DNA of 32,000 nt from Rhodobacter capsulatus SB 1003 (GCF_000021865.1 NC_014034.1:1410001-1442000); one strand, 5' to 3'. Shown: positions 3,829 through 24,909, numbered from the stretch's first letter. Numbers and translations are program-made. Notes: a model not told the origin generated them from the sequence alone.

Positions 3829-4072
3829 GATTACGCCTCGTCTACTGGGGACCATTTCCTCCATTGTAATCACGCGAACGAAAGCAACCAAACAAGATGA
3901 GACGGAAATTCACACGAAACGGCGAAATAAGTCGAATTTGCCGCCAATCTCGGAAAAACAATTTCGCAAAACTGTTGATTTCGGCATCTTCAAGCGGCGC
4001 AATGCTGCGCGTTGAATATAATTTCGGAAAAGATGCCATATTTTATTTCCAGACAGCCAGATATCACGCATT

Positions 4073-10462: not shown

Positions 10463-11842
10463 TTCCGGTGTCCATATTCTTCGGCGAAGTGCCTCCGGGT
10501 CGGGCGGTCTCTTGCTCGGGTGACCACTCAGGCGGTCCGTGGGAGGCGGAACCGATCGACAAGCATGACGAGGACAGCCCTCGGACACGCGAAAGCGCCG
10601 ATGCGATGTGGTTCTTGCTGTCTTGGTGTCCGACTTGATAACGCCGGTGCCGCGTCATTTCCTTGTGGTGATCCGCGTGAAATGCTTGGACCGACCGCCA
10701 GCGCTGATGGTTTCGGTCTAGGGAGTTTCTCGCGGCGCGCTGCAAGAGATGCTGCGCAACAGTTGTGAGCGTGTTGGAGGTCTTGGATTAACCCATATCG
10801 CCCTGAGGAGAGAGGCCGCCCGGCGCTTATCGCTATTGGCGTCCTGAAGAATTTCGTGAAATGGCCAGCATTAAGCCAATTTCATCGAAGTTGTTCCTGC
10901 ACAGAAACGCCGTCATTTCTGTGAGGATTTCCCCGAAACCTTACCTTTATGTTGCCATGCAGATCTGACATTGGAATTCATGGCGCGGCTCACTCGGTTA
11001 TTTGTCGCAGATCAGGAGAAATTATGAGGTGTTCAGCTGCATATAAACCAAACTTCCTTCTTGCACTTTCCGCCTTCCGGCCCGCGACTTGATATTTATC
11101 GCCCGAAGTGATTGCATTTGCCGCCAGCATCTCGCGAAAATAAACCTCACCCAGAGGTCCCGTATTTTGCTTGGCGTTTGCTGGTTGCAGCTATGTTCCT
11201 GCATTGCTGGATGCGTCAAGTCATGCTCTTGCCTCACTTTATTTACTTCAGCGGCGATCGCCGTTTCGTTCATTGCCGCACGCACAATGCGATCAGCCTC
11301 GCCAGCCTTTATGGATGGAGCAAATCGTTGGTGTACAGAAGTTTTTTTAAATATCGATCATTAACCATGATTTATTCGCAATTCGGCCTTTTGATAGAAT
11401 TCGTGGATTACAGCCTTGCGTTTCTGGCGACGCGAAGCTGCAAGAGGAGGAAAAATTCCATTTTTCGCTTTCCAAGATTTTTTTGTGTGATTCTTCGTGT
11501 CGCGATAAGGGGACCTCGCTCGCGATCGCTTCGCGAATGTCAATATATCTTTTAGTTGCGAAAGGGCGCCGCCAAAGCTGATTTTCGCCCGAATCGGTCC
11601 GCCTTCAACTCGGTCAGTGCGCCGACCCTGGAGCAACGCCAGATCGGTCGGTGATGCGCATTCGCACCCTCCCTGCGCCGCTGTTTTTCCGATCGGCCTG
11701 AGGATATGCGCTGTGCCAAGGGGATCGTTTTTCGCAATTGCGAAGGCCTGCCCGCGGGGGTTGCCAGTTTACCTCAAAGGTTGATACCGTCCCGACAGCA
11801 GCCGCCGTGGTTGCGCCATTGGATCAGGTGCAGCGGGACCGG

Positions 11843-14296
11843 ATGGACAAGAACGGCCTCTCGGAACGCGATATTTGTTCGATTTTCATTACCCCGGCAT
11901 TGCAAAAGGCGGGCTGGGATCCTGTGACCCAGATCCGGGAAGAGGTCGGCTTCACCCGCGGGCGGATCAATGTGCGCGGCAAACTCGTCAGCCGTGGCCA
12001 GGGCAAGCGCGCCGATTACATCCTGTCGATCCGGCCAAATATTCGCCTTGCGGTGATCGAGGCGAAGGACAACGCCCACGCCACCGGCGCTGGCATGCAG
12101 CAGGCCCTCGATTATGCCGAGACCCTGAACCTGCCGTTCGCTTTTTCCTCGAACGGGGACGGCTTCCTTTTTCATGACCGGACGGGGATGAGCCCCACGC
12201 CTGAGGTTCTCCTCTCACTCGACGACTTCCCTTCGCCCACCGAACTCTGGGCACGCTATTGCGCCTGGAAGGGGCTCGACGCCGCCGCAAGCTCCGTTGC
12301 GCTGCAGGACTACCACGACGACGGCAGCGGCAAGGAGCCGCGCTATTACCAGATCAACGCGGTGAACGCCGCAATGGAGGCGATCGGACGGGGTGAGAAC
12401 CGGGTGCTTCTTGTCATGGCGACGGGCACCGGCAAGACCTACACCGCGTTCCAGATCATCTGGCGTTACCGGCAGGCTTTTCCGGGCAAGCGGATCCTGT
12501 TCTTGGCCGACCGCAACGTGCTGATCGATCAGACCATGGTCAATGATTTTCGGCCCTTCTCTGGCAAGATGGCGAAACTCTCGACCCAGTCAAAGACGAT
12601 CGAACGCGCCGATGGCTCCTCGGTCGAGCTGCCCCTCGGCCTCGACCGCAAGCGTCGGATCGATCCGTCCTACGAAATCTACCTTGGTCTTTATCAGGCG
12701 ATCACCGGCCCGGCGGAAGAGGACAAGATCTTCCGCGAGTTTTCGCAAGACTTCTTCGACCTGATCATCATCGACGAATGCCACCGCGGCAGCGCTGCCG
12801 AGGACTCTGCCTGGCGCGAGATCCTCGATCATTTCTCGGGCGCGGTGCAGATCGGCATGACCGCGACGCCGAAGGAAACCGAATACGCGTCGAACATCGC
12901 CTATTTCGGCGCGCCGGCCTACAGCTATACCCTGCGGCAGGGCATCCGGGATGGTTTCCTCGCGCCCTACAAGGTGATCAAGGTCCATATCGACCGCGAC
13001 ATTCAGGGCTACCGCCCGGAAGCCGGCCAGACCGATCGCGATGGCGCGCTGGTCGAGGACCGGATCTACAACACCAAGGATTTCGACCGCACCCTCGTGC
13101 TGGATGACCGCACGAAACTGGTCGCGCGCAAGGTCACCGAATTTCTCAAGGAAAGCGGTGACCGGATGGCCAAGACGATCGTCTTTTGCGTCGATCAGGA
13201 GCATGCCGCCCGGATGCGGCAGGCGTTGGTGAATGAAAACGCCGATCTGGTGGCGCAAAATCCCCGCTATGTCATGCGCATCACCGGAAGCGACACGGAG
13301 GGCCTAGAGCAGCTGGGGAATTTTATCGACCCCGAGGTCTCGCATCCGGTGATCGTCACCACCTCGCGGCTTTTGTCGACCGGCGTCGATGCCCAGACCT
13401 GTCGTCTGATCGTGCTCGACCGCGAGGTAGGCTCGATGACCGAATTCAAGCAGATCGTCGGGCGCGGCACCCGGGTGCATGAAGACACGGGCAAGCTTTA
13501 CTTCACGCTGATGGATTTTCGCGGCGCGACGAACCATTTTGCCGATCCCGATTTCGACGGCGAGCCGGTGCAGATCTACACGCCCACCGGCACGGACCCG
13601 ATCGTGCCGCCCGACGACGTTCCGCCGCCAGAGGGGGACGAGCCGCCCCTTTCCGCCACGCCGGGGCCGGACGAGACGGTGCTGATCGACCCGGTCGCAA
13701 CGCTGGGGCAAACCGGGTCAGGCGCGCCGCAACGCAAGATCTATGTCGATGGCGTCGCCGCGACCATTGTCGCGGAACGCGTCGAATACCTTGACGAACA
13801 CGGCAGGCTGATCACCGAATCCTTGCGCGACTACACCCGCAAGGCGCTGAAACGGCGCTTTGCCAGCCTTGATGATTTCCTCAAACGCTGGAAGACGCCC
13901 GAAAAGAAACAGGCCGTGCTCGACGAGCTTGCGGCCGAGGGGTTGCCGCTCGATCTCGTGGCGGCGGAGCTTGGTCGCGATCTCGACCCGTTCGACCTGA
14001 TCTGCCATATCGCCTTCGACGCCAAGCCCCTGACCCGCCGCGAACGCGCCGAGGGCGTCAAGAAACGCGATGTCTGGGCGCGCTACGGCGCCACCGCGCG
14101 CGCCGTGCTGACTGCGCTCCTCGACAAATACGCCGACGACGGGCTTCTCGATTTTGACGACCCCAAGATCCTGAAAATAAATCCCTTCTCGCAAATGGGA
14201 ACCGAGGTTGAACTGATCCGGGCTTTCGGCAAGAAGCAGGACTACCTGAAGGCCATGCACGATCTGCAGGCTGCCCTTTACGATGAAAGCGCCTGA
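11843..14296 (+). CDS. hsdR: Type I restriction enzyme R subunit (EcoEI/EcoAI-like C-terminus, i.e. type IB-like)
   Basis: Track ORF 11738..14296, with an in-frame ATG at 11843 (MDKNGLSERDICSIFITPAL). It has the PD-(D/E)xK-like motif RADYIL...LAVIEAKD, helicase motif I LLVMATGTGKTYTA, and the DEAH-type box LIIIDECHRGS. The C-terminal segment DDFLKRWK...DPFDLICHIAFDAKPLTRRERA resembles the EcoEI R C-terminal domain. Confidence 0.9.
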   Translation: MDKNGLSERDICSIFITPALQKAGWDPVTQIREEVGFTRGRINVRGKLVSRGQGKRADYILSIRPNIRLAVIEAKDNAHATGAGMQQALDYAETLNLPFAFSSNGDGFLFHDRTGMSPTPEVLLSLDDFPSPTELWARYCAWKGLDAAASSVALQDYHDDGSGKEPRYYQINAVNAAMEAIGRGENRVLLVMATGTGKTYTAFQIIWRYRQAFPGKRILFLADRNVLIDQTMVNDFRPFSGKMAKLSTQSKTIERADGSSVELPLGLDRKRRIDPSYEIYLGLYQAITGPAEEDKIFREFSQDFFDLIIIDECHRGSAAEDSAWREILDHFSGAVQIGMTATPKETEYASNIAYFGAPAYSYTLRQGIRDGFLAPYKVIKVHIDRDIQGYRPEAGQTDRDGALVEDRIYNTKDFDRTLVLDDRTKLVARKVTEFLKESGDRMAKTIVFCVDQEHAARMRQALVNENADLVAQNPRYVMRITGSDTEGLEQLGNFIDPEVSHPVIVTTSRLLSTGVDAQTCRLIVLDREVGSMTEFKQIVGRGTRVHEDTGKLYFTLMDFRGATNHFADPDFDGEPVQIYTPTGTDPIVPPDDVPPPEGDEPPLSATPGPDETVLIDPVATLGQTGSGAPQRKIYVDGVAATIVAERVEYLDEHGRLITESLRDYTRKALKRRFASLDDFLKRWKTPEKKQAVLDELAAEGLPLDLVAAELGRDLDPFDLICHIAFDAKPLTRRERAEGVKKRDVWARYGATARAVLTALLDKYADDGLLDFDDPKILKINPFSQMGTEVELIRAFGKKQDYLKAMHDLQAALYDESA

Positions 14297-14301
14297 GGCC
14301 A

Positions 14302-15747
14302 ATGTCCGTCCGCACCCTCGTCAAATCGCTGCAACAGATCATGTGGAAGGACACCGGCGTCGACGGCGATGCGCAACGGCTCAGCCAGATGTGCTGGATG
14401 TTCTTCCTCAAGATCGTCGACGATCAGGACGAGGCCCTCGAACTCACCCGCGACGATTACACCTCGCCGATCCCAGCCGATCTGCAGTGGCGCGCCTGGG
14501 CGGCCGACCCCGAGGGGATGACTGGCGATCAACTTCTGAGCTTCGTCAACGAAGAGCTCTTCCCCGGCCTCAAAGGCCTGCGCCCCGCCACCCCCCGCGC
14601 CCGCACCATCCGCGACGTCTTCGAAGACGCCTACAACTTCATGAAATCCGGGCAGCTGCTGCGGCAGGTGATCAACAAGATCAACGAGATCGATTTCAAC
14701 AACCTCTCCGAACGCCAGCATTTCGGCGACATTTACGAACAGCTCCTCAACGACCTGCAAAACGCCGGCAACGCGGGCGAATATTACACCCCCCGCGCCG
14801 TCACCGCCTTCATGGTCGAGCGCATCGACCCCCGCCCCGGCGAGATCGTGATGGACCCCGCCTGCGGCACCGGCGGCTTTCTCACCTGCGCCATGCGCCA
14901 CATGCGCGCCCGCCATATCCGCCTACCCGAACACGAAGACGCCATGCAGCGCTCCTTGCGCGCGGTCGAAAAGAAACCGCTGCCGCACATGCTTTGCGTC
15001 ACCAACATGCTGCTCAATGGCATCGAAGAGCCGCATTTCGTCCGCCACGACAACACCCTCGCTCGCCCGCTCACCAGCTGGACCCGCGACGAGCGCGTCG
15101 ACATCGTGCTGACCAACCCGCCCTTTGGCGGCAAGGAAGAAGACGGCATCGAGAACAACTTCCCCACCTTCCGCACTCGCGAAACCGCCGATCTGTTCCT
15201 TGCCCTGATCATCCGCCTGCTCAAGCCCGGTGGCCGCGCCGCCGTGGTTCTGCCCGACGGCTCGCTCTTCGGCGAGGGCATCAAGACCCGGCTGAAAGAG
15301 CACCTGATGGCCGAATGCAACCTGCACACCATCGTGCGGCTGCCCAATTCGGTCTTCAAACCCTATGCCTCGATCGGCACCAACCTGCTGTTCTTCGAAA
15401 AGGGCACCCCCACCACCGAGACATGGTTCTGGGAACATCGCGTCCCCGAGGGGCAAAAGGCCTATTCGATGACGAAGCCGATCCGGCTTGACCATCTGGC
15501 GGGCTGTGCGGACTGGTGGGGCGGCGCCACCCGCGAGGGGCGCGTCGAAGGCCCGCAGGCCTGGAAGGTCTCGGCCGAGGAGATCAAGGCCCGCGGCTAC
15601 AACCTCGACATCAAGAACCCCCATGCCGAGGCCGAGGATCTGGGCGACCCCGAGCATCTTCTGGCCGCGCTCGACGAGGCCGAGGCCGAGGTCACCCGCC
15701 TGCGCGCGGCCTTGAAAGAGATCCTGACCGAGGCGCTGGCGCGATGA
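14302..15747 (+). CDS. hsdM: Type I R-M N6-adenine DNA methyltransferase M subunit
   Basis: It starts 5 nt after the hsdR stop. AdoMet motif I is MDPACGTGGFL and catalytic motif IV is LTNPPFGG. The HsdM-type N-terminus reads WMFFLKIVDDQDE. Confidence 0.92.
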   Translation: MSVRTLVKSLQQIMWKDTGVDGDAQRLSQMCWMFFLKIVDDQDEALELTRDDYTSPIPADLQWRAWAADPEGMTGDQLLSFVNEELFPGLKGLRPATPRARTIRDVFEDAYNFMKSGQLLRQVINKINEIDFNNLSERQHFGDIYEQLLNDLQNAGNAGEYYTPRAVTAFMVERIDPRPGEIVMDPACGTGGFLTCAMRHMRARHIRLPEHEDAMQRSLRAVEKKPLPHMLCVTNMLLNGIEEPHFVRHDNTLARPLTSWTRDERVDIVLTNPPFGGKEEDGIENNFPTFRTRETADLFLALIIRLLKPGGRAAVVLPDGSLFGEGIKTRLKEHLMAECNLHTIVRLPNSVFKPYASIGTNLLFFEKGTPTTETWFWEHRVPEGQKAYSMTKPIRLDHLAGCADWWGGATREGRVEGPQAWKVSAEEIKARGYNLDIKNPHAEAEDLGDPEHLLAALDEAEAEVTRLRAALKEILTEALAR

Positions 15748-17426
15748 ACGCCGATCAGCTTTTGCGCCTTTACGACCGGGTCTGCGAGGCCGAGGACGCC
15801 GTCCCCCGCCTGCGCCGGTTTGTCCTCGATCTGGCCGTGCGCGGCAAACTGGTGCCGCAGGACCCGGACGATGAACCGGCCTCCGAACTGCTGAAACGGA
15901 TCGAGAAGGAAAAGGCCCGGCTGGTGAATACGGGGGAGATCCGGAAGCCTAAGTCGCAGACCCCGTTGAACGGCGATGTTTGCCCGTTTCTCGTTCCTCG
16001 GGGATGGGCTCTTACGCGCCTCGGTTCGGTGATCGATCTGCTATCGGGGCAACACCTGCAACCGAATGAATATTCATCCAATCCGGCGGCAGGCATCCCT
16101 TATATCACTGGCCCTTCCGATTTTGCCGAAGTTGGCCTTTCCATTTCGCGTTACGCCCTTGTGCGAAAGGCAGTCGCGCGTGGTGGGCAACTCCTTCTCA
16201 CCGTGAAAGGATCAGGTGTTGGCAAGACCACGATCTGTGATCTTCCCGAGGTCGCAATCAGCCGCCAACTGATGTCACTTGCACCGATCCTGTGGTCGAT
16301 CAGATTTCTGGAAATCATAACGCACCGTCTGGCAGACACGCTTCAAGAGCAAGCCCGCAGCCTGATCCCCGGAATATCCCGGGAGGACGTTGCAGACTTC
16401 GCGTTCCCCCTCCCACCCCTCGCAGAGCAACACCGCATCGTTGCCAAGGTCGAGGAACTGATGGCGCTGCTCGACCGGATCGAGGCGGCGCGGGCGGGGC
16501 GAGAGGAGGGGCGCAACCGCCTGACCGCCGCCACCCTTGCCCGCCTGACCGACCCCAAGGCCGACGCCCCCGCCGCCGCCCGCTTCGCGCTGGACACCCT
16601 CGCCCCCCTCACCACCCGCCCGGACCAGATCAAGACCCTGCGCCAAACCATCCTCAACCTCGCCGTCCGAGGCAAACTGGTCCCGCAAGACCCGGCAGAC
16701 GAACCGGCGTCGGAGTTGCTGAAACGGTTCAAGGCGGCCAAGATCGCACATAAATGGGAGACCGGAGATGCGCGGAATAAACTTGCGCCCGACGCTGAAG
16801 TATCGAGCTACCCGCTGGAATTGCCCAAGGGCTGGGCGGTGCAGTCCTTCGAGAACCTGTTTCTTTTCATCGACTATCGTGGCAACACGCCCCCAAAGAC
16901 CGATAGCGGTGTGCCACTGATCACGGCCAAGAACGTTCGCATGGGGTCACTCAACCGCGAGCCAAGGGAGTTCATTTCAGAAAAGACCTTCAAGTCTTGG
17001 ATGACCAGAGGCTTTCCCAAGCTGGGCGATCTTTTTTTCACCACCGAAGCCCCTCTTGCCAACGTTTGTCTGAATGACATTCAGGAGCCGTTTGCGCTCG
17101 CGCAGCGAGTGATCTGTCTTCAGCCTTATGCTGAAATCAGCACCCACTACTTGATGCTGGCGCTTTGTGGCGACGTGATGCAGTCGTTGATTGATGGGCA
17201 AGCAACAGGGATGACGGCAAAGGGTATCAAGGCATCCAAGCTTAAACCGCTTCCCATCTCCCTCCCCCCCCTCGCCGAACAACACCGCATCGTGGCCAAG
17301 GTGGACGCCCTGATGCGCCTCCTCGACGCTCTCGAGGCGGCGCTGAGCGCCTCGGCCACCACCCGCGCCCGCCTCCTCGACGCCACCCTGCGCGCCGCGC
17401 TGACCGACACCGGAGAAGCCGCATGA
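15744..17426 (+). CDS. hsdS: Type I R-M specificity subunit (two target-recognition domains)
   Basis: ATG 15744 overlaps the hsdM stop (ATGA); the track ORF begins earlier, at 15516. The conserved regions are duplicated: LAVRGKLVPQDP(D/A)DEPASELLKR occurs twice and PPLAEQHRIVAKV(E/D) occurs twice. Each flanks a variable region, as expected for HsdS. Confidence 0.9.
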   Translation: MNADQLLRLYDRVCEAEDAVPRLRRFVLDLAVRGKLVPQDPDDEPASELLKRIEKEKARLVNTGEIRKPKSQTPLNGDVCPFLVPRGWALTRLGSVIDLLSGQHLQPNEYSSNPAAGIPYITGPSDFAEVGLSISRYALVRKAVARGGQLLLTVKGSGVGKTTICDLPEVAISRQLMSLAPILWSIRFLEIITHRLADTLQEQARSLIPGISREDVADFAFPLPPLAEQHRIVAKVEELMALLDRIEAARAGREEGRNRLTAATLARLTDPKADAPAAARFALDTLAPLTTRPDQIKTLRQTILNLAVRGKLVPQDPADEPASELLKRFKAAKIAHKWETGDARNKLAPDAEVSSYPLELPKGWAVQSFENLFLFIDYRGNTPPKTDSGVPLITAKNVRMGSLNREPREFISEKTFKSWMTRGFPKLGDLFFTTEAPLANVCLNDIQEPFALAQRVICLQPYAEISTHYLMLALCGDVMQSLIDGQATGMTAKGIKASKLKPLPISLPPLAEQHRIVAKVDALMRLLDALEAALSASATTRARLLDATLRAALTDTGEAA

Positions 17427-18361
17427 CTACTCTGCCAAAGGGAAAAAGCCTCTGGATCCGCTCCTTCTACGGGTTCAACCCAGAAGAGGACGGCTATGCC
17501 GGATGGACGAAGGAGGCCGGGCGCGACCACATTCTCAAGCATATCAAGGGCGGGGATCTGATCCTTATCTATGGTGCGGGCTCGAAAGAGACGGACAAGG
17601 CACTGCGGTCCTATGTCCTCGGCTTCCTGCAGGTCGACGCAACCCCGATCGATGACCGCGACAAGGCCTCGCCCGAAAGCCTGAAACGCAAGGCAGCACA
17701 GGGCTGGGCAAATAAATGGACGTTCGGAATTCCGGTGCGCAGGGCGTGGCGGGTCGATGAAAAGCTGCTGATCCGCTCCATTGCTTTCAACACCTATCGC
17801 CCGGAGGCCGGACAGGCCATCGGGGTCTGGGGGGCCGCGCTCGAGCCGGAGGAAATAGAGAAGGCGCTGAAGATCAGGGTCACCGAGGTGAACGTGTTCG
17901 GCGAGCCGCCGATTGCTGCGACCGGTCTTAAAAAGGCTCCGCTGGGCGATGAATTCAAGCCCTCACGCGGGTTTCCGGGCGCGTTCGGAACCCACACATC
18001 TACCAAGAATGACGGCGAGACCTGGCTCTATCTGTTCAGGTTCGAGGGCGACTGTCACGCGCTTGTAGGGCGCCCCAAGGCACACGGTGGCAAATCACTC
18101 GCGTGGAAGATCGGCGTCTCGAGCGACACGGCGGCACGGCTTGGACAACTGAATTTGGGAATCCCGCCCGCCGCGAAGGGGCGATGGGGCCAGTTCCTGC
18201 AGGCGCGGTTTCCCGACCGCAGATCCGCAGAAGCGGCCGAACAGCGTTTCAAGGATGAGAGCAACGGCAAGCTGGAAAGTCTGGGGGGCGAATTTTTCTG
18301 GGGCGATGAGATGCAGGCGATGCTGCTCTTCGCTGGAATTCCGGGCGTTTCGAGGTTTTGA
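17423..18361 (+). CDS. Hypothetical protein coupled to hsdS: T5orf172/GIY-YIG-like C-terminal domain, possibly PUA-like (EVE/ASCH-type) N-terminal domain
   Basis: ATG 17423 overlaps the hsdS stop (ATGA). The C-terminus WLYLFRFEGD...WKIGVSSDTAARLGQLNLGIP...AEQRFKD...LGGEFFWGD follows the T5orf172 pattern (YIY..., KIG.T, R...LN, E..H..F, EWF). In the N-terminus, GGDLILIYGAG...SYVLGFLQV is reminiscent of PUA-like folds, but that assignment is weak. Confidence 0.6.
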   Translation: MTTLPKGKSLWIRSFYGFNPEEDGYAGWTKEAGRDHILKHIKGGDLILIYGAGSKETDKALRSYVLGFLQVDATPIDDRDKASPESLKRKAAQGWANKWTFGIPVRRAWRVDEKLLIRSIAFNTYRPEAGQAIGVWGAALEPEEIEKALKIRVTEVNVFGEPPIAATGLKKAPLGDEFKPSRGFPGAFGTHTSTKNDGETWLYLFRFEGDCHALVGRPKAHGGKSLAWKIGVSSDTAARLGQLNLGIPPAAKGRWGQFLQARFPDRRSAEAAEQRFKDESNGKLESLGGEFFWGDEMQAMLLFAGIPGVSRF

Positions 18362-18777
18362 TCGGCAACGTGATGACGTCGTCCGCACCTTCTGAACTGT
18401 CTCGGATGCCCCTGGCACATGACACCATCAGCGCGATCCTGGACTGTGTGCCACTGCTGGCAGGACCGCAGCACTAACGTGACGGGCGATTTGGCGCCGT
18501 TGATGTTGCAGTTGCCGCATCTTGTGATAGCGTCCCGTGGTCGTCTCTCCCGGAGCGGCTGCAACGCGCAGTTTTCAGCCATGCAGATCCCCAGCGCCGT
18601 GCGGCGCGGATCCGAATGTTCGGCCCTTTGCCGGCGGCAGAGCCTCGGCGCGCCCTTTCGAAACGGCCGTTCAGGCACGGCGGAGAGACGGGGCAAGCTT
18701 AGCCGTTTGCCGTCTGTATTGCGCGATGCAGCATCGCCTGAGCTCTCTCGGATGACCAACAGAGCTTACATATAAGC

Positions 18778-18796
18778 ATATCATCCGATATGATAT
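18778..18796. promoter_or_regulatory. Inverted repeat ATATCAT-CCGAT-ATGATAT upstream of the ATPase gene; candidate operator or promoter element
   Basis: Read directly. It lies exactly at the GC-rich to AT-rich transition, about 20-35 nt upstream of the candidate starts at 18818 and 18833. Confidence 0.25.
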
Positions 18797-18817
18797 CCGG
18801 AATCCAACGCTGTTTTC

Positions 18818-20554
18818 TTGCTGGGGCTCCAAGTGAAAATCAAATATCGGATAAATAACTTTAAGGCTTTTTCGGACAGTGGGGAGATGTCATTCTCTCC
18901 CGTGACTGTGCTCTGTGGGGCTAACAGCACAGGAAAGAGCTCTATAATAAAGTCTATTCTTCTTGCAAAGCAAAGCACAGCCGAGCGAAGAAGCTCACTC
19001 AAGATTGATGCTCCGTCTCAACCACTGATACTAAATGGTGAGTTGACCAAGCTCGGCGCATGGAGCGATACGATTACCGGTAAAGATCGCGCGAAATCAA
19101 TGGGCTTCTGTTGGTCTGTAAAGCTATCTCAAGAAGAGTTCGATGATGCATTAAAGCGAGCTGGTTTGCTGAGGCGAGGTGAAGCCAGTTCAGAGTTAGA
19201 TTTGGCGAACCAAAGAGATTTAACTCTCTCAGTTTCTTTAAGCTCAGACACCGAAGTCCGAGAGGAACTCTCAGCGCGAGTTGATCGGTGGGATGTTAAT
19301 CTTGACGATCTGAACGTACGAGTGTTTAGGCAGGAGGTCGCAAACGGCTCTCGACCTTTGTATCGTGTCGAAATTAATAGTATAAGAAAATTAATAAGGA
19401 GGAAAGGGTCCAAATTTGGATCATATCGCGTTATACTCGGCGACCTGCACAAGGCACTTTCTGGCGCTGATACCCCGATAAGCCTTGGGAATGTGTACGC
19501 CGTCAACTCTGGCCCCTTTATTGGTAGAATTGAGCCTCGATTCGATGAGACTTGGACTAATTTTTTTGAAGCAATTTACAAATTGTCCGTATCGCACAGA
19601 GGACGAAAACGCGGACCGGCACCTGGATGGCTAGAAGATCTCGGGGCAGCGGTACGAACCTACAGGAAAGGTCTTTCTGAAGGAAAGATGCCAACCGCGC
19701 GCAATACCGCCATGCGAGTTCTTACCTATCTCGCGATTGAATTCGTTAGTGAGATATCGCTTGTTTTCTCCGAGACAAAAGCAGTCCTCGCTCCTATGTG
19801 GCAAGACATCCGCTATCTAGGCCCATTAAGAGATCAGCCCAGGCGATACTACCAATTTGATGATACTGGTGGAGCTGATGTAGGTGTCAGTGGAGAATTT
19901 ACTGTGCAGGTCCTCGCGCTAGAGCAAGGAAGGGTCCTTCAATCAACTCGACTAGCCAGTCTGCCTTCGAATAGAATTAAATTCACCGATCGAAAATTAA
20001 CCACCCTTTTGGACCATACAAATTTTTGGTTGAGTTGGATGGGGCTTCCCGCAGTTTCGCCTCTCAATTTGCAGCAATCCCTATATGGCCTTGCCGTGGG
20101 GGATCTTCGGGTTGGTCTTCTGGATGTGGGATTTGGCGTGAGCCAAGTTTTGCCAATTATAGTTGAGACACTCAGGGCCGAGAAAGGCGATCTCGTAATT
20201 CTTGAGCAACCAGAGATCCACTTGCACCCGAGAGTGCAGGCACTTCTTGGAGATTTTCTTCTTGCTAGGTCTCAGGATGGTGTTCGCTTTCTTGTCGAGA
20301 GTCACAGTGAATACCTAATAAAGAGACTTTGCCGCAGAGTATCTGAATCGGAATCTGAAAATTTGCGACCAAGTATTGAGATTCTTTTTATAGAAGGATC
20401 ACCCGAAGGCGCAAGCTGCAGGCCCGTAGAACTGAATGACTATGGTGAAATACTAAATTGGCCTAAGGGCTTCTTCGATTTGGATGAGGATCTTCATTGG
20501 ACACATGCTGCCCTCGAGAGAAGACGAGCAAGCAACGCCAAGAAGCAGAAGTAG
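18818..20554 (+). CDS. ABC/SMC-like AAA ATPase (AAA_15/AAA_21-type) with DUF3696-like C-terminus
   Basis: The track start at 18818 is TTG. The in-frame GTG at 18833 (VKIKYRINNFKAFSD) is an equally plausible start. Motifs: Walker A VLCGANSTGKSS, YLGPLRDQPRRYY, DVGFGVSQVLPII, Walker B-like DLVILEQPEIHLHP, H-loop-like ESHSEYL, and C-terminal NWPKGFFD. Confidence 0.85.
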   Translation: MLGLQVKIKYRINNFKAFSDSGEMSFSPVTVLCGANSTGKSSIIKSILLAKQSTAERRSSLKIDAPSQPLILNGELTKLGAWSDTITGKDRAKSMGFCWSVKLSQEEFDDALKRAGLLRRGEASSELDLANQRDLTLSVSLSSDTEVREELSARVDRWDVNLDDLNVRVFRQEVANGSRPLYRVEINSIRKLIRRKGSKFGSYRVILGDLHKALSGADTPISLGNVYAVNSGPFIGRIEPRFDETWTNFFEAIYKLSVSHRGRKRGPAPGWLEDLGAAVRTYRKGLSEGKMPTARNTAMRVLTYLAIEFVSEISLVFSETKAVLAPMWQDIRYLGPLRDQPRRYYQFDDTGGADVGVSGEFTVQVLALEQGRVLQSTRLASLPSNRIKFTDRKLTTLLDHTNFWLSWMGLPAVSPLNLQQSLYGLAVGDLRVGLLDVGFGVSQVLPIIVETLRAEKGDLVILEQPEIHLHPRVQALLGDFLLARSQDGVRFLVESHSEYLIKRLCRRVSESESENLRPSIEILFIEGSPEGASCRPVELNDYGEILNWPKGFFDLDEDLHWTHAALERRRASNAKKQK

Positions 20555-20562
20555 ATAAATAG

Positions 20563-21498
20563 ATGAGTGTCTTTCTAGATCCCAACATCTACTGCTACTC
20601 CATTGATGAGTGGCAGCAGGGCGCTGCTCTTGATCGTATGCATCATTTGACAACTTTCCTTGAAAGTCTTGGTATTGAAGAGGAGCGATTAGAAGCCAGA
20701 AATCAGGTAGAATTGTGGCTTAGCGAAATCTTGATTTTCGCGACGTATGAAATGAATCCAAATATTAACACTCCACCAAATGGGTTTTACTTTCGGCAGT
20801 ATGTATCCGGGCTACTCCCTGCCTTGATGCGCAGGAAAATTACTTTCGAAGCGCCCGCGGTCGACGCCTGCAGGGCATCTGAGCGGATAAATATAGATAA
20901 TTGCGTCATTGAAGAGGCATTAATATGCGCCCTAGATGAAATTTCAACCGATGACGCCAAAAAAATTACTTATATTTTCGCCTCATCACGTGTTAGCTTA
21001 GCTCTCGGAGGAGGGGTATTCTCTGCAGAATTTGAGATTAATGAGGTGAATGGAAGGCACTTTCTGGATGAGTGTGATCTATTTCCTTTGTCGAGCAAAG
21101 TATCCCCAGATATTGCGATCGTCGCAGCTGCTGAAGTTCTGAAAGATAAACTTTCGATTGAGGATGCAACTTGGAGAGAACATTCAGTTTGCAAGGCTAT
21201 TCTTCACGAAAATTTTCTTCCGTCCATCACGCGTGCTGATTTTGGCGCTGATGAGCGTATATATCATTCCCGGGTTGTTTATTCACTGCTGCAGATTTTG
21301 TCTGGTCGAAACTGCACCATAAATGAGCATTCAATGAATCCTGAGAAAATTTGGTTTGACAAGAAATGGCATGGAAAGTGGAATTCATATGTGTTCAGAA
21401 ACGGTCCGAGTGATATTGATTCGAGGTGTTCACGGATTTACTATGCTAAAGTAGATGGCGGAGTTCTTCTCTATGAATACAATGGCGATGCACACTAG
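20563..21498 (+). CDS. 311-aa protein with no family I recognise, partner of the ATPase; the C-terminal ~60 aa show a RelE/YoeB-like pattern (tentative)
   Basis: The ATG lies 8 nt after the ATPase stop, on the same strand and with the same AT-rich composition. I see no HNH, TOPRIM, DUF4435 or DUF262 motifs. The C-terminus KWHGKWNSYVFRN...SRIYYAKVDGGVLLYEYNGDAH resembles the GxWSRRI...HRLVYAV.DD.LLI..CRYHY layout of YoeB/RelE toxins. Confidence 0.7.
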   Translation: MSVFLDPNIYCYSIDEWQQGAALDRMHHLTTFLESLGIEEERLEARNQVELWLSEILIFATYEMNPNINTPPNGFYFRQYVSGLLPALMRRKITFEAPAVDACRASERINIDNCVIEEALICALDEISTDDAKKITYIFASSRVSLALGGGVFSAEFEINEVNGRHFLDECDLFPLSSKVSPDIAIVAAAEVLKDKLSIEDATWREHSVCKAILHENFLPSITRADFGADERIYHSRVVYSLLQILSGRNCTINEHSMNPEKIWFDKKWHGKWNSYVFRNGPSDIDSRCSRIYYAKVDGGVLLYEYNGDAH

Positions 21499-21603
21499 CC
21501 CTATGGTCTGCGTAGTGTAAACAGATTGGAAGGGCGCTGAAATAGTCGGCGTCGACCTCAGAAGCAGAACATAATTCACCCTTCGCGGCGCCGAGAGGGA
21601 GAT

Positions 21604-21900
21604 CATGATGCGAGGCACGGACGAGACGAGCGGGTCGCTTTTCAGCCATGTCGACCTCGAGGAGGCGCATCCCTTGCAAACATCCTCTGCACAAGATCCT
21701 GCGGGTGGTGAACGAAGCCCTCACGATCCGCGCTGCTCGTTGCTGGGGCTCTGAAACGGGAGAAAACTGCGCGTTTCTTTCGCTCGGATGAAGATCCCGA
21801 ACGGCCGTGATCGCCAGTTTCTGCAGTTGCAATGCCGTGACCTCGCAGTCGGCTCCCCGCCCGAAGCGGTAATGCGGGGGCACGGCGAGCAAGTCCGACG
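21604..21900 (+). pseudogene. Decayed N-terminal relic of an IS5-superfamily transposase
   Basis: ATGATG at 21604 gives MMRGTDETSGSLFSHVDLEE..HPL. After a frameshift it continues KILRVVNEAL. This matches the conserved N-terminus (MRGTDETSGSLFSYVDLEERIPARHPLRKIRQVVNEAL...) of a common alphaproteobacterial IS5-type transposase as I recall it from memory. Downstream frames carry stops and only faint similarity, and the right limit is uncertain. Confidence 0.5.
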
Positions 21901-22261: not shown

Positions 22262-22990
22262 TCAGTGCCACTGCGGCCCCGCCTCAAGCGTCTCTGCACG
22301 CGAAATCATCCGCATCACCGTGCGGAGCGAGATCGGCTGGGCAGGAGTTGCGCTCGCTTGGATCGCTTCCACGATCACCTCGATGCTGTCATCGCTCAAA
22401 GCACGCCGCGCGCCTTGGCGGCGGGCAAATCCGGTCAGGTCCCGCGTTGTCAGCTGCGGCAGCCGGATGGGCGGGCAGCGGCTCAGCAGCGGCTCCGGAA
22501 GGGGGCGCGTCGCGTTGACGGTCATGACCCATGACACCTGTCCCAAGTCAAATGGCACTTGAAAATACGGGCAAGTCCAACGGCTTGCGGTTGCGGACTC
22601 CAACAGTGGCAACAGTCCGCCGCACAGATCATAGGACCCGCCATTCGTCCCTGTCACACGACCGGCCTTTTCGAGTTCATCGATCACGACGATCGGGTTG
22701 CCAACCCTCTCCTGAAGGATCAGCTGTAGCAGCCGCCCGGGTCCTGCGGTGGCCCAGCCGCGCTGGCAGCCCAGAACGCCGAAACTGGCGTTCTCAACCG
22801 TCGCTTCGACTGACATCGATGGCATGCGCAGCGCGGTAGCCAGATGACGTGCCCAAGTCGATTTCGCGATCCCCGGGGGCCCATCGAGCAGCAGCGGCGG
22901 CAGGCGAACGCCCGGCCAACCCTCGCGCACCGATTTCCGCAACGCGTGCCATCCATGGGAATTCGTCATGTAGGTCAGCGGCGATCTCAT
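22262..22990 (-). CDS. AAA+ ATPase with a Lon-type AAA module and no protease domain; probably the C-terminal part of a frameshifted gene
   Basis: Walker A is LLLDGPPGIAKST and Walker B is PIVVIDELEKAG. Later segments (LLPLLE...WTCPYF...DLGQVSWVMTVNATRPLPEPLLSRC) follow the Lon AAA+ layout. It overlaps the upstream ORF by 197 nt in a different frame. Confidence 0.7.
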   Translation of the reverse strand: MRSPLTYMTNSHGWHALRKSVREGWPGVRLPPLLLDGPPGIAKSTWARHLATALRMPSMSVEATVENASFGVLGCQRGWATAGPGRLLQLILQERVGNPIVVIDELEKAGRVTGTNGGSYDLCGGLLPLLESATASRWTCPYFQVPFDLGQVSWVMTVNATRPLPEPLLSRCPPIRLPQLTTRDLTGFARRQGARRALSDDSIEVIVEAIQASATPAQPISLRTVMRMISRAETLEAGPQWH

Positions 22991-23363
22991 CCGCGCGGTG
23001 CTCCGAGGGAAGCCGGATCAGATTGACACCGTCACGCAGAATGGAAAGACGCTCTTTGTCCTCACGCTTGAGATGGGCCAGCCCCGACGCCGCCTCGCGG
23101 CGCTCGATCAACCGCTTGGCCCGCCGCGCGATCTTGCGGCAATCCGCCTCCGCCAATGTGATGATCGGGGCCATTTGCCGGGGATTGTCCGCGGCGGCCT
23201 TGGGGCCCGTGGGGCGGGGCGGATCCTCGTCCCGGATTGCGTCCAACTCGACGTGGATCATCGCCCGCCGAAGGGTCTTGAGGTGCTCGGACAGGCGCAG
23301 TTCGATCGATTTCTGGGTCTCGTCCGACGGATATTTGACCAGCAATATCTGGTGACGCGGCAT
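22794..23363 (-). CDS. Hypothetical protein, probably the N-terminal part of the AAA+ ATPase gene
   Basis: ATG 23363 has AGGA about 7 nt upstream. Plausible protein text runs to about ...LIRLPSEHRADEIAADLHDEFPWM (near 22,950). After that this frame turns Ala/Arg/Gly-rich, while the other frame reads WHALRKSVREGWPGVRLPPLLLDGPPG. Confidence 0.5.
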   Translation of the reverse strand: MPRHQILLVKYPSDETQKSIELRLSEHLKTLRRAMIHVELDAIRDEDPPRPTGPKAAADNPRQMAPIITLAEADCRKIARRAKRLIERREAASGLAHLKREDKERLSILRDGVNLIRLPSEHRADEIAADLHDEFPWMARVAEIGARGLAGRSPAAAAARWAPGDREIDLGTSSGYRAAHAIDVSRSDG

Positions 23364-23439: not shown

Positions 23440-23790
23440 TCAGGCGATGACCGGTTTGCGCGGGGCGTTGACCGCGATGCCGCGCCAATCGATCCCGGCA
23501 AAGAGGGCGTCGAACTGCACCTGGTTCAGCATCATCGGCCCGGACTGGGCCTTGGGCCAGACGAAGCGCTTGCCATCGAGCCGCTTCATCGTCAGCACCA
23601 GCCCGGTGCCATCCCAGACGATCATCTTCAGCTTGTCGGCGCGACGGGACCGGAACACCCAGATCGCGCCGTCGAACGGGTCGAGCTGGAACTGGCTCGC
23701 GACATGCGCCACCAGCCCGTCCATTCCCTTGCGAAAATCGATCGGCTCGGTGGCGAGGTAGATGCGGTAGCTTGGGGTGTGGTAGCTCAT
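23440..23790 (-). CDS. tnpB: IS66-family accessory protein TnpB (IS66 Orf2-like)
   Basis: 116 aa: RIYLATEPIDFRKGMDGLVAHVASQFQLDPFDGAIWVFRSRRADKLKMIVWDGTGLVLTMKRLDGKRFVWP. This is the characteristic IS66 Orf2 sequence. Its ATG overlaps the tnpA stop (ATGA). Confidence 0.92.
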   Translation of the reverse strand: MSYHTPSYRIYLATEPIDFRKGMDGLVAHVASQFQLDPFDGAIWVFRSRRADKLKMIVWDGTGLVLTMKRLDGKRFVWPKAQSGPMMLNQVQFDALFAGIDWRGIAVNAPRKPVIA

Positions 23791-24221
23791 TGCGAGGCCC
23801 TCACCGCACGCAGGATCTCGGCCAGCTGCTCGGCCGGAAAGTCACCACGCAGCGATATCTCGGCGTCGCCGATCCGGATCTGACAGGCGGCCGCGTCAGC
23901 GGCGCCTTTCTGCTTCGCTTGGCGCGCCGGTTCCGAAGGGACCATCACCTCGACGAACTGCGGAGACTTGCCCTGCGAAGCAGCCTTTCCCTGCGGCCTC
24001 CCCCGGCGCGGCAGCTCGGGCAATTCGGCGCGCGCCCATTTCGCGACTAGGGACTCATTGGCGCCGATCTCCTTGGCGACGGTGACGATCTTGGTGCCGG
24101 CCTCGATCTTCTTCACCGCCATCGCCTTGATCTCATCGGGCCAGACTCGACGCCCGTTGTCGGCGGTGATCACCGGGATTCCCCAGACCACCACATCGCC
24201 GCCCTCCTTCTCGTCCAACAT
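23787..24221 (-). CDS. tnpA: IS66-family accessory protein TnpA (HTH)
   Basis: 144 aa, with GGAGG upstream of ATG 24221. It contains RRVWPDEIKAMAVKKIEAGTKIVTVAKEIGANESLVAKWAR (HTH) and the C-terminus IRIGDAEISLRGDFPAEQLAEILRAVRA, typical of IS66 orf1. It starts 81 nt inside the IS end at 24302. Confidence 0.88.
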   Translation of the reverse strand: MLDEKEGGDVVVWGIPVITADNGRRVWPDEIKAMAVKKIEAGTKIVTVAKEIGANESLVAKWARAELPELPRRGRPQGKAASQGKSPQFVEVMVPSEPARQAKQKGAADAAACQIRIGDAEISLRGDFPAEQLAEILRAVRASQ

Positions 24222-24302: not shown

Positions 24303-24909
24303 CGTGGATCGAAACAGGCTGCTTTGGGCGGAACACCTGATCCTGCTGGGTCGCTCCCCCCGCGGGGGCGTGGATCGAAACGTCTCCGCTCTGCTTCACG
24401 GCTGCGTCAACCTTGTCGCTCCCCCCGCGGGGGCGTGGATCGAAACACGGATTGCATGGCGCCGAGGGACAGGCTTTGCAGTCGCTCCCCCCGCGGGGGC
24501 GTGGATCGAAACCGCCCGCGGCGTTTGACCTGGTCGCGGGCAGCTGGTCGCTCCCCCCGCGGGGGCGTGGATCGAAACGACGCGCTGAAGGAGGGTGATC
24601 TCGGTGGCGCCTTGTCGCTCCCCCCGCGGGGGCGTGGATCGAAACACGGATTGCATGGCGCCGAGGGACAGGCTTTGCAGTCGCTCCCCCCGCGGGGGCG
24701 TGGATCGAAACCGCCCGCGGCGTTTGACCTGGTCGCGGGCAGCTGGTCGCTCCCCCCGCGGGGGCGTGGATCGAAACGACGCGCTGAAGGAGGGTGATCT
24801 CGGTGGCGCCTTGTCGCTCCCCCCGCGGGGGCGTGGATCGAAACATGGAAAACCGCGGCTTCACCGCGCGGGATTGGGTCGCTCCCCCCGCGGGGGCGTG
24901 GATCGAAAC
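24303..24909 (+). CRISPR. Type I-C-like CRISPR array: 13-nt repeat remnant plus 9 full 32-nt repeats, 9 spacers (6 unique sequences); no cas genes in the window
   Basis: The repeat is GTCGCTCCCCCCGCGGGGGCGTGGATCGAAAC. Full copies start at 24350, 24415, 24481, 24547, 24614, 24680, 24746, 24813 and 24878. Spacers are 33-35 nt. The remnant CGTGGATCGAAAC lies at 24303..24315, followed by a 34-nt spacer. The GTCGC...GGAT(T/C)GAAAC form is typical of subtype I-C repeats, which sets the orientation as +. Confidence 0.95.

Follow-up and report, generated by a model that had tools for sequence, protein, structure and literature searches.

The stretch of Rhodobacter capsulatus SB 1003 DNA analyzed here (GCF_000021865.1 NC_014034.1:1410001-1442000; its full 32,000 nucleotides are called the window, and positions are counted from its first letter) carries an AT-rich cassette of two intact genes on the plus strand, open reading frame 1 (ORF1, 18833-20554) followed by ORF2 (20563-21498). 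A first-pass annotation of the window had taken this pair, a DUF3696-type ATP-binding cassette (ABC) ATPase and an unassigned partner, for a candidate undescribed defence system. The parts of the cassette, with the evidence on which each was delimited, are the following.

18761..18832, plus strand: AT-rich leader of the cassette (GC drop and onset of homology to the related locus L002)
18833..20554, plus strand: ORF1, NsnB/HEC-03-type ABC ATPase of 573 residues whose C-terminal tail is DUF3696 (Pfam, PADLOC, motifs)
20563..21252, plus strand: ORF2 N-terminal domain, residues 1-230, alpha/beta (AlphaFold2 model, conservation)
21253..21498, plus strand: ORF2 C-terminal domain, residues 231-311 plus stop (AlphaFold2 model, Foldseek, conservation)

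The ORF listing confirmed that the stop codon of ORF1 (20554) and the ATG of ORF2 (20563) are separated by 8 nt, as had been read from the sequence. The longest ORF1 in that listing starts at a TTG codon (18818-20554, plus strand, 578 residues), and ORF2 encodes 311 residues. Because the ATPases of the related loci L002 and L003 begin at GTG/ATG codons aligned with GTG 18833 of ORF1, and because the exact 573-residue product is on record (WP_080514681.1, 'DUF3696 domain-containing protein', R. capsulatus), the alignments indicate that the true start of ORF1 is almost certainly GTG 18833. An older gene call of 555 residues also exists (ADE85078), and the product of ORF2 is recorded as a 'hypothetical protein' (ADE85079.1/WP_013067058.1).

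The cassette (~2.7 kb) has a GC content of 0.457, as against 0.612 and 0.629 in its left and right flanks, and GC at third codon positions is 0.43 in ORF1 and 0.41 in ORF2 versus 0.73-0.86 in the adjoining genes, a difference well beyond noise. The GC content falls at ~18,760 and returns at ~21,580, in agreement with the AT-rich block noticed earlier, and the fall coincides with the start of homology to L002 at ~18761 (CAGAGCTTACAT...), no homology being found further upstream. The cassette is also AT-rich relative to its flanks in relatives from several GC-rich, mutually unrelated hosts (0.457 vs 0.66-0.67 in L006; 0.425 vs 0.63 in L005), and therefore the pair moves as a unit. The composition thus supported the earlier suggestion that the gene pair was acquired horizontally. 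Within the leader there is a sigma-70-like site (CTTACA-18-TATGAT, 18765-18794), whose -10-like hexamer is overlapped by a 7-bp inverted repeat (ATATCAT 18778-18784/ATGATAT 18790-18796, N5 spacer) that is partly kept in L002. This palindrome may act as an operator; promoter-like matches in the leader were no commoner than chance, and a terminator scan was likewise at chance level.

ORF1 is an ABC ATPase with a DUF3696 tail

In Pfam, ORF1 matched AAA_15 (6.5e-22), AAA_21 (1.3e-16) and DUF3696 (9.5e-07). Its top PADLOC match was NsnB (5.9e-61), the ATPase of Menshen, a system reportedly described by Millman in 2022 as NsnA-NsnB-NsnC, followed by the HEC-03B ATPase (1.1e-54) and PDC-M55A (1.6e-44). 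The models of AriA, GajA, PtuA and Old gave far weaker scores (1e-24 or worse; AriA and GajA, 1e-24 to 1e-8), and no TOPRIM domain was found in ORF1 with either Pfam or PADLOC. Both databases thus agreed with the first assignment of ORF1 as a DUF3696 ABC ATPase, and all of the motifs quoted for the two proteins were present in their translations, those of ORF1 being GANSTGKSS, YLGPLRDQPRRYY, DVGFGVSQVLPII, DLVILEQPEIHLHP, ESHSEYL and NWPKGFFD. In the numbering of the 573-residue product, the motifs are Walker A G29-x-N-S-x-G-K35-S, YLGPLR333, DVG433FG435VSQ, Walker B LE458QPE461xH463LH465P, E489SH491S and NW543PxGFF548.

An alignment of 12 ATPases (A4), which comprised ORF1, six sequences from loci with ORF2 relatives, a bona fide NsnB, a HEC-03 ATPase, a PDC-M55A and two unassigned plasmid ATPases, revealed as invariant the Walker A GxNSxGKS, Y-LGPLR-xx-P, in which Arg substitutes for the Q-loop Gln, VGxGxSQ, in which GxG substitutes for the SGG signature, the Walker B hhhhE-Q/N-PE-x-HLHP, E-S/T-H-S, and NWP-x-GFF in the DUF3696 tail. 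An unusual motif set has been reported for NsnB, i.e. Arg for the Q-loop Gln, the GxG signature, Walker B E-Q/N, a His switch and the NWPxGFF tail (PMC12065111), and the alignment with the bona fide NsnB indicated that ORF1 shares it. The assignment of ORF1, with its DUF3696 tail, to the defence-associated OLD-ABC ATPases can be regarded as virtually certain. Nevertheless, ORF1 scored 205 bits with the NsnB model versus 404 bits for a true NsnB, and an insert of ~200 residues lies between its Walker A region and its R-loop; on sequence grounds, it is not an NsnB orthologue. Temperate phages of Klebsiella, Vibrio and E. coli (OK490394 and others) also carry DUF3696 ATPases, which have ~31% identity to ORF1 in its C-terminal half.

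The Walker A region of ORF1 gave weak Pfam and NCBIfam matches to SMC_N, RecF and Rad50, as might be expected if ORF1 were a housekeeping or DNA-repair SMC/RecF-like ATPase lying beside an unrelated neighbour and the pair formed no conflict system. Those matches cover only ~40 N-terminal residues, however, and the compositionally foreign pair contradicts the conserved Rhodobacterales synteny and host-like composition that such a role would entail. As described below, the family is moreover patchy and rare, the context is one of defence genes and insertion sequences (IS), and the fold of the partner is toxin-like. This explanation was rejected as extremely improbable on account of the foreign composition, the patchy family, the defence context and the toxin-like partner.

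ORF2, its relatives and its two domains

ORF2 gave no match in Pfam, PADLOC, NCBIfam or PDB sequence searches. Neither HNH, TOPRIM or DUF262 signatures nor any of the PADLOC partner models were found in it, which bears out the earlier statement that it lacks HNH, TOPRIM/DUF4435 and DUF262 motifs, and a PHROGs match (Alt-like, 0.07) was dismissed. The family is rare. A word-indexed search of 5.8 billion clusters returned two homologues, and an exhaustive HMMER search of 1.84 billion representatives returned 37 relatives, 30 of them with E <1e-10 and most of them full-length (306-335 residues). A word-indexed profile search with the family alignment (A3; 29 sequences, ~25-45% identity) gave three matches and added nothing, and tblastn of ORF2 against plasmid and phage collections gave no match, the family being absent from both. 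The 29 aligned members had no Pfam match and no match to the PADLOC NsnC model.

To find ORF2 homologues beside DUF3696 ATPases in other genomes had been set as a test of the first proposal. Among the 15 loci whose genomic context was examined, the ORF2-family gene lies directly downstream of a DUF3696 ATPase gene (546-583 residues) in 13, namely the window, L001-L006, L016, L018, L019, L021, L032 and L045, with a gap of -4 to +9 nt. In L007 (Phenylobacterium sp. J367, 9340-10762), a deletion has fused ATPase residues 2-188 to ORF2 residues 63-317, leaving a pseudogene. No DUF262/NsnA gene was present in the window or in any of the 15 loci, and no sizeable ORF of the window had a DUF262 Pfam or an NsnA PADLOC match. 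A six-frame phmmer search of the window and of all loci with a bona fide NsnA detected only the canonical Menshen locus L015 and one opposite-strand gene in L099. The identities to the window in L001, L002, L003 and L005 were 85, 62, 46 and 29% for ORF2 versus 94, 82, 57 and 43% for the ATPase; by this measure, the partner diverges faster than the ATPase. We consider it very probable that ORF1 and ORF2 constitute a functional pair.

The same data bear on whether the block could be a non-functional remnant of a Menshen locus that has lost nsnA. NsnB is the best PADLOC match of ORF1, IS relics flank the block and the Phenylobacterium copy is truly degraded, all of which would suit decay. However, both ORFs are intact with all their motifs, the DUF262-less gene pair occurs in 13 loci of different hosts, ORF1 is ~200 residues longer than NsnB and has the low NsnB score given above, and the homology boundary at 18761 leaves no space for a lost upstream gene. 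We therefore rejected decay, whose probability appears very low, because of the intact ORFs, the recurrent DUF262-less arrangement, the NsnB score and the 18761 boundary.

By tblastn of ORF1 against plasmids and by a metagenome scan, ~90 loci with DUF3696 ATPases were collected. The plasmid examples, sorted by PADLOC models, included a canonical Menshen in Photobacterium (NsnA, 1.9e-120; NsnB, 1.4e-121; NsnC, 4.4e-85), HEC-03 in Aeromonas, PDC-M55 in Bacillus, and two-gene modules whose partner matched nothing in Pseudoalteromonas, Acetobacter, Vibrio and Lacticaseibacillus. The 80 metagenomic loci were classed by the gene starting within a few bases of the ATPase stop, which was a short HEC-03A-like PIN protein (...VVDTNV...) in 47 loci, a member of what we call class B in ~16 and an ORF2-family member in three. 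Class B partners have ~295-306 residues, the N-terminus hhh[D/E]P..hFIS..DW and the C-terminus RFRVT..S.RIHY...I.FLRYYGeGEHDDGL. When the ORF2 family (29 sequences) was compared by hhalign with class B (13 sequences), 271 collinear columns spanning both proteins were aligned (Prob 97.0, E 1.2e-10). This profile alignment showed that ORF2 is homologous over its full length to the commoner class B partners, and the end-to-end match therefore places it in a superfamily of ~300-residue partners of long DUF3696 ATPases. Both classes have the R-I-[YH]-Y strand and, close to the C-terminus, a His, and R291 is almost invariant across the superfamily. The hhalign comparisons of A3 or of the merged superfamily with the partners of L010, L012 and L014 were never significant. 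In L044, an ATPase whose tail is 48% identical to that of ORF1 is accompanied by a different partner of 342 residues (509-1537); by analogy, this is partner shuffling of the kind described for NsnC.

The length of the ATPase varies with its partner, being 345-369 residues for NsnB (345 in the PADLOC model), a median of 460 with PIN-only partners, a median of 505 with class B and 546-583 with the ORF2 family. The ATPase thus lengthens as the partner becomes larger and NsnA is absent, which suggests that sensing may have moved into the ATPase insert.

The AlphaFold2 model of ORF2, built from a 29-sequence alignment, had a mean predicted local distance difference test (pLDDT) score of 93.5 and a predicted template modelling (pTM) score of 0.89, with pLDDT values of 89-97 over residues 231-310. 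According to DSSP, the C-terminal domain of the model consists of a helix (231-247) and four antiparallel strands (256-265, 268-278, 290-297 and 300-307), i.e. the predicted structure has a RelE/ParE (BECR)-like fold. In Foldseek searches of the PDB, this domain matched YafQ (4ml0_B/4q2u; probability, 0.96-0.97; target TM score, 0.65; root mean square deviation (rmsd), 3.4 Å) and also ParE2, HP0894, PrpT and HigB, and in BFVD it matched viral RelE-like proteins, including a 101-residue protein (probability, 1.0; TM, 0.68) and a 'Cytotoxic translational repressor'. Among the matches listed, all of the remaining ones had probabilities <=0.2 and rmsd values of 9-12 Å. YafQ/RelE/ParE-type toxins are therefore the only consistent structural matches listed for the ORF2 model, and they concern its C-terminal domain.

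Conservation points to the same part of the protein. The residues invariant in the 29 sequences lie mostly in the C-terminal domain (H256, D286, R288, C289, S290, R291 and H311), where W273, N274, Y293 and D309 are near-invariant, and the mean pairwise identity in the family is 44% in this domain versus 25% in the N-terminal one. A resemblance of the last ~60 residues (KWHGKWNSYVFRN...SRIYYAKVDGGVLLYEYNGDAH in the translation) to RelE/YoeB toxins had been proposed from the sequence, and the last ~80 residues indeed model as a RelE/YafQ-like fold. The underlying strand pattern, W/R-x-x-V-F/R, R-I-Y-Y and a terminal His, resembles ...WSRRI...HRLVY...CRYHY of YoeB. These models suggest that the C-terminal domain is probably an RNase effector of the RelE/YafQ-like (BECR) type.

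The N-terminal domain retains conserved acidic residues (D6, E16, E40, D201 and D226), of which D6 is conserved in 96% of the members, E40 is D/E in 100%, and D201 and D226 are conserved in 83-86%. Its first strand, VFLDPNIY, mirrors the beta1 motif VIDTNVLL of the HEC-03A PIN domain, and the spacing from D6 to E40 appears to equal that of VapC PIN domains. Hence this domain could itself be a catalytic PIN-like nuclease (D6, E40, D201, D226), with the C-terminal domain targeting RNA or the ribosome or being regulatory, or else both domains could cut RNA. The effector of HEC-03 is in fact an active-looking VapC-like PIN (bioRxiv 10.1101/2024.01.29.577857). On the other hand, Foldseek returned no match to the N-terminal domain, and no PIN, among the 50 matches listed per library; a profile comparison with the 47 HEC-03A-like PIN partners aligned the beta1 strand alone and fell short of significance (E 0.06); the homologous class B partners have D, E, S or H where ORF2 has D6; the N-terminal domains of NsnC have been reported to be catalytically dead PINs (PMC12065111); and the strongest invariance of the family lies in the C-terminal domain. 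We regard a catalytic role of the N-terminal domain as unlikely, and 'PIN-like' is a lead that rests mainly on the NsnC precedent. In that precedent, 98% of the NsnC N-terminal domains are PIN-like, and AlphaFold 3 models place the NsnC N-terminal domain between two NsnB DUF3696 tails (PMC12065111). By analogy, the N-terminal domain of ORF2 is presumed to be an adaptor docking on the DUF3696 tails of the ATPase.

Two further observations concern the architecture of the family. In L021 (2913-3904), the ORF2-family copy is split exactly at the junction of the two domains. A four-cysteine motif, CPxxxC...CxxC, is present in 24 of the 29 relatives at columns equivalent to ORF2 residues ~94-135 of the N-terminal domain; this insertion is probably a zinc ribbon, and the motif has been lost from the window protein and from the four relatives closest to it.

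A candidate anti-phage module in its genomic surroundings

Taken together, these results led us to read the block, with a probability of about 0.55 and largely by analogy, as a mobile two-gene anti-phage module consisting of a DUF3696-tailed ABC ATPase and an RNase effector, Menshen-like without NsnA and acting by abortive infection. An anti-phage role of the pair as such is likely, and the type I restriction-modification (R-M) operon, CRISPR array and IS relics nearby were counted in its support, together with the sibling two-gene modules that adjoin AbiE/AbiG and toxin-antitoxin genes on plasmids and the ATPases of temperate phages. The activation logic that we propose is tentative and is modelled on Menshen, HEC-03, PARIS, Septu and WonAB. 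ORF1 would oligomerize, and pairs of DUF3696 tails would clamp the probably PIN-like N-terminal domain of ORF2, keeping the RNase inactive or primed. A phage cue would be sensed by the ATPase itself, whose enlarged insert may stand in for NsnA, and ATP binding or hydrolysis would release or activate ORF2. The BECR domain could then cut RNA (mRNA on the ribosome, tRNA or rRNA), translation would stop and the infection would abort.

Several results weigh against this reading. The Foldseek E-values of the C-terminal domain were modest (0.03-0.5), because ~90 of the 311 residues of ORF2 match. The RelE, YoeB, YafQ, Gp49 and ParE Pfam models matched none of the 29 family members; PDB sequence searches with the alignments A1 and A3 and with the C-terminal domain profile A8 gave nothing beyond spurious matches; and hhalign comparisons of the family with three RelE-family toxins from plasmids (YafQ, RelE and ParE) were not significant. 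Nor was significance reached in hhalign comparisons with a single NsnC and with a 121-sequence NsnC alignment of low diversity (72-100% identity). The Foldseek and PIN-profile results for the N-terminal domain given above count in the same direction, as does L020 (8001-8969), the most distant member of the family, which is solitary and has no ATPase. The matches of ORF2 profiles to Kunitz and methyltransferase PDB sequences were spurious.

The ORF2 family and class B could instead constitute a separate defence system, unnamed so far and fairly widespread, in which NsnA is absent, the long DUF3696 ATPase senses infection through its enlarged insert, and the effector under its control is a dual nuclease, with a catalytic PIN-like domain (D6/E40/D201/D226) and a RelE-like RNase. 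We consider this doubtful; if true, it would be a domain combination and a sensing logic undescribed for Menshen or HEC-03. The surroundings of the cassette have the following features.

11738-14296 (hsdR), 14302-15747 (hsdM) and to 17426 (hsdS), plus strand: type I R-M operon, context only (Pfam ResIII/EcoEI_R_C, N6_Mtase/HsdM_N and Methylase_S; hsdM record, ADE85075)
17423-18361, plus strand: GC-rich gene of 312 residues overlapping the hsdS stop (ATGA), conserved in R. capsulatus (ADE85077)
21566-21732, plus strand: short remnant of an IS5-family element, from its 5' end, abutting the cassette (blastn, 74-78% identity over ~165 nt only)
~23,475-23,840: IS66 tnpB-like piece
24349-24909: CRISPR-like array (Tandem Repeats Finder, period 66, ~8.5 copies, repeat GTCGCTCCCCCCGCGGGGGCGTGGATCGAAAC)

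The R-M operon, IS5 relic, IS66 piece and CRISPR array named in the first-pass annotation were thus all found, and between hsdS and the cassette there are the GC-rich 312-residue gene and a 0.4-kb spacer, the upstream region 18361-18832 being non-coding and GC-rich. The 312-residue gene had no match in Pfam, PADLOC, PHROG or NCBIfam and may be an accessory or defence gene embedded in the R-M operon. The blastn matches of the IS5 relic are IS5-family transposase genes on Rhodobacterales plasmids, and the same relic lies behind the cassette in L001 (~2825-2990), whose ATPase is 94% identical to ORF1; either cassette and relic moved together, or L001 is an orthologous locus. There was no cas gene among the window ORFs scanned, and the gene downstream of the CRISPR-like array encodes a sigma-54 activator.

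The IS relics flanking the cassette would also suit an addiction role, in which ORF2 is a RelE-like toxin, ORF1 an ATPase-type neutralizer, and the main function of the pair is to stabilize the island or mobile element. Such a toxin-antitoxin (TA) role agrees with the RelE-like fold of the C-terminal domain and with the Pfam annotation of AAA_21 as 'putative AbiEii toxin, type IV TA', and sibling two-gene modules on plasmids adjoin AbiE/AbiG and TA genes. It is nonetheless improbable. The nearest characterized relatives, Menshen and HEC-03, protect against phages, and HEC-03 needs both of its genes; in the analogous WonAB, simple sequestration has been excluded experimentally (PMC12137116); and ORF2 is a two-domain protein of 311 residues with no small antitoxin gene adjoining. 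Moreover, TA and abortive-infection roles are not mutually exclusive.

Some other features of the window were observed. An AAA ATPase gene (22262-23363, minus strand), which overlaps an upstream ORF, resembles 'AAA family ATPase/DUF6634' pairs, and such pairs adjoin IS66 tnpB on Paracoccus and Ketogulonicigenium plasmids; here, too, the neighbouring stretch matches IS66 tnpB. An ORF of 956 residues (1030-3900, plus strand) contains in-frame tandem repeats with periods of 162 and 369 nt and 88-90% matches, and it had no Pfam or PADLOC match. A second AT-rich dip (11001-11555, GC 0.46) is located directly upstream of hsdR and holds an ORF of 147 residues (11112-11555), also without a Pfam or PADLOC match. 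A literature search by R. capsulatus locus tags found nothing.

If the proposed anti-phage module is functional, the NsnB-NsnC core of Menshen can function on its own, as a system of two genes whose effector is a RelE-type RNase, and an uncatalogued partner superfamily, made up of the rare ORF2 family and the commoner class B, is added to the repertoire of ABC-ATPase defence. This would not be surprising in principle, and it would be useful for annotation, since such loci are left unannotated because current PADLOC and Pfam models miss the partner, as well as for understanding how NsnA-less DUF3696 ATPases sense infection. Direct tests are feasible in R. capsulatus SB 1003, a genetic model for which phages have been isolated and which possesses a gene transfer agent.

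Comparison with known defence systems and toxins

The PADLOC models assigned the ATPase but not the pair, which they would leave uncalled. The terms 'undescribed system' and 'new effector' used at first were overstated, because a DUF3696-tailed ABC ATPase with an effector is a kind already described (Menshen, HEC-03); the novelty lies in the family to which the partner belongs and in the pairing of the ATPase with a RelE-like effector in the absence of NsnA. Neither the partner superfamily nor that pairing is catalogued in PADLOC-DB 2.0.0, Pfam 2025 or NCBIfam 20, and they are not discussed in the survey of Menshen domains, for which DUF262 served as the seed.

Septu, PARIS and Gabija had been named at the outset as the systems to compare, and the comparison is valid but more distant than that with Menshen and HEC-03. 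In PARIS (AriA/AriB), Septu (PtuA/PtuB), Gabija (GajA/GajB) and WonAB, an OLD-type ABC ATPase likewise controls a nuclease effector. C-terminal extensions of the ATPase bind the effector in Septu and WonAB, and in PARIS and WonAB, where tested, tRNA is cleaved or translation arrested and the infection aborts. WonAB, which pairs an ABC ATPase with a nuclease, aborts infection by blocking translation, and the ATPase is needed for toxicity (PMC12137116). Their effector folds, in contrast, are TOPRIM, HNH and PD-(D/E)xK, and no partner of the AriB (DUF4435 TOPRIM), PtuB (HNH) or GajB (helicase) type was found here, ORF2 matching no PADLOC model. The type II mRNA interferase toxins RelE, YafQ and YoeB share the predicted fold of ORF2 residues ~231-311, and differ in the lack of detectable sequence homology, the fusion to a 230-residue N-terminal domain, the absence of an antitoxin gene and the ATPase partner.

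Class B modules, exemplified by KQ246_19765/19770 on the Pseudoalteromonas plasmid CP076682, resemble the pair in the hhh[D/E]P...W start and R-I-[HY]-Y ... H end of the partner, in the long DUF3696 ATPase and in the absence of NsnA. They differ in the low identity to ORF2 (~13-15%), in the shorter ATPases (~505 residues) and in carrying RFRVT...RIHY...GEHDDGL where ORF2 has WNAYVF...RCSRIYY...PDAH.

HEC-03 also has two genes without a DUF262 sensor, a DUF3696 ABC ATPase and an effector gene directly downstream. In the example tested, both genes were needed for defence, and HEC-03 was found within or next to other defence operons (bioRxiv 10.1101/2024.01.29.577857, Payne et al. 2024). However, its partner is a single-domain VapC-like PIN protein of 160-190 residues, whereas ORF2 has 311 residues and an added RelE-like domain, and its ATPase has ~460 residues as against 573 in ORF1. 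The HEC-03A model gave no match to ORF2, although it detected a true partner at 2e-24. The B model of the PADLOC candidate PDC-M55 likewise gave no match to ORF2, although it detected the partner on the Bacillus plasmid at 2.5e-26, and hhalign of A3 with that partner gave E 0.67.

With Menshen, the pair shares the NsnB architecture of ORF1 (ABC ATPase plus DUF3696 tail) and its unusual motifs, NsnB being the top PADLOC match; the size of ORF2 (311 residues vs ~300-326 in NsnC) and its apparent two-domain layout, with a PIN-like first strand and a BECR/RelE-like C-terminus; the near-abutting order of ATPase and effector; and a polymorphic, fast-evolving partner. In the NsnB-NsnC core of Menshen, NsnC combines an N-terminal PIN-like domain with a C-terminal BECR/RelE-type RNase, and YafQ, the best PDB match of the ORF2 C-terminal domain, is also the PDB match reported for NsnC PB-BECR1 (PMC12065111). 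Unlike Menshen, there is no NsnA gene (ParB-DUF262 plus ParBDB) upstream, here or in any relative; ORF1 is ~200 residues longer than NsnB and reaches half the score of a true NsnB; ORF2 matches no PADLOC NsnC model; and the arrangement of H256, D286, R288, R291 and H311 differs from the H-R-H of PB-BECR1, the N-terminal domain keeping its acidic residues. With no NsnA, no NsnC model match and a partner that is not a short PIN, the pair falls outside membership of both Menshen and HEC-03. Set beside these systems, the module is best read, by analogy, as Menshen's NsnB-NsnC core operating in the absence of the DUF262 sensor NsnA, like the experimentally validated two-gene system HEC-03.

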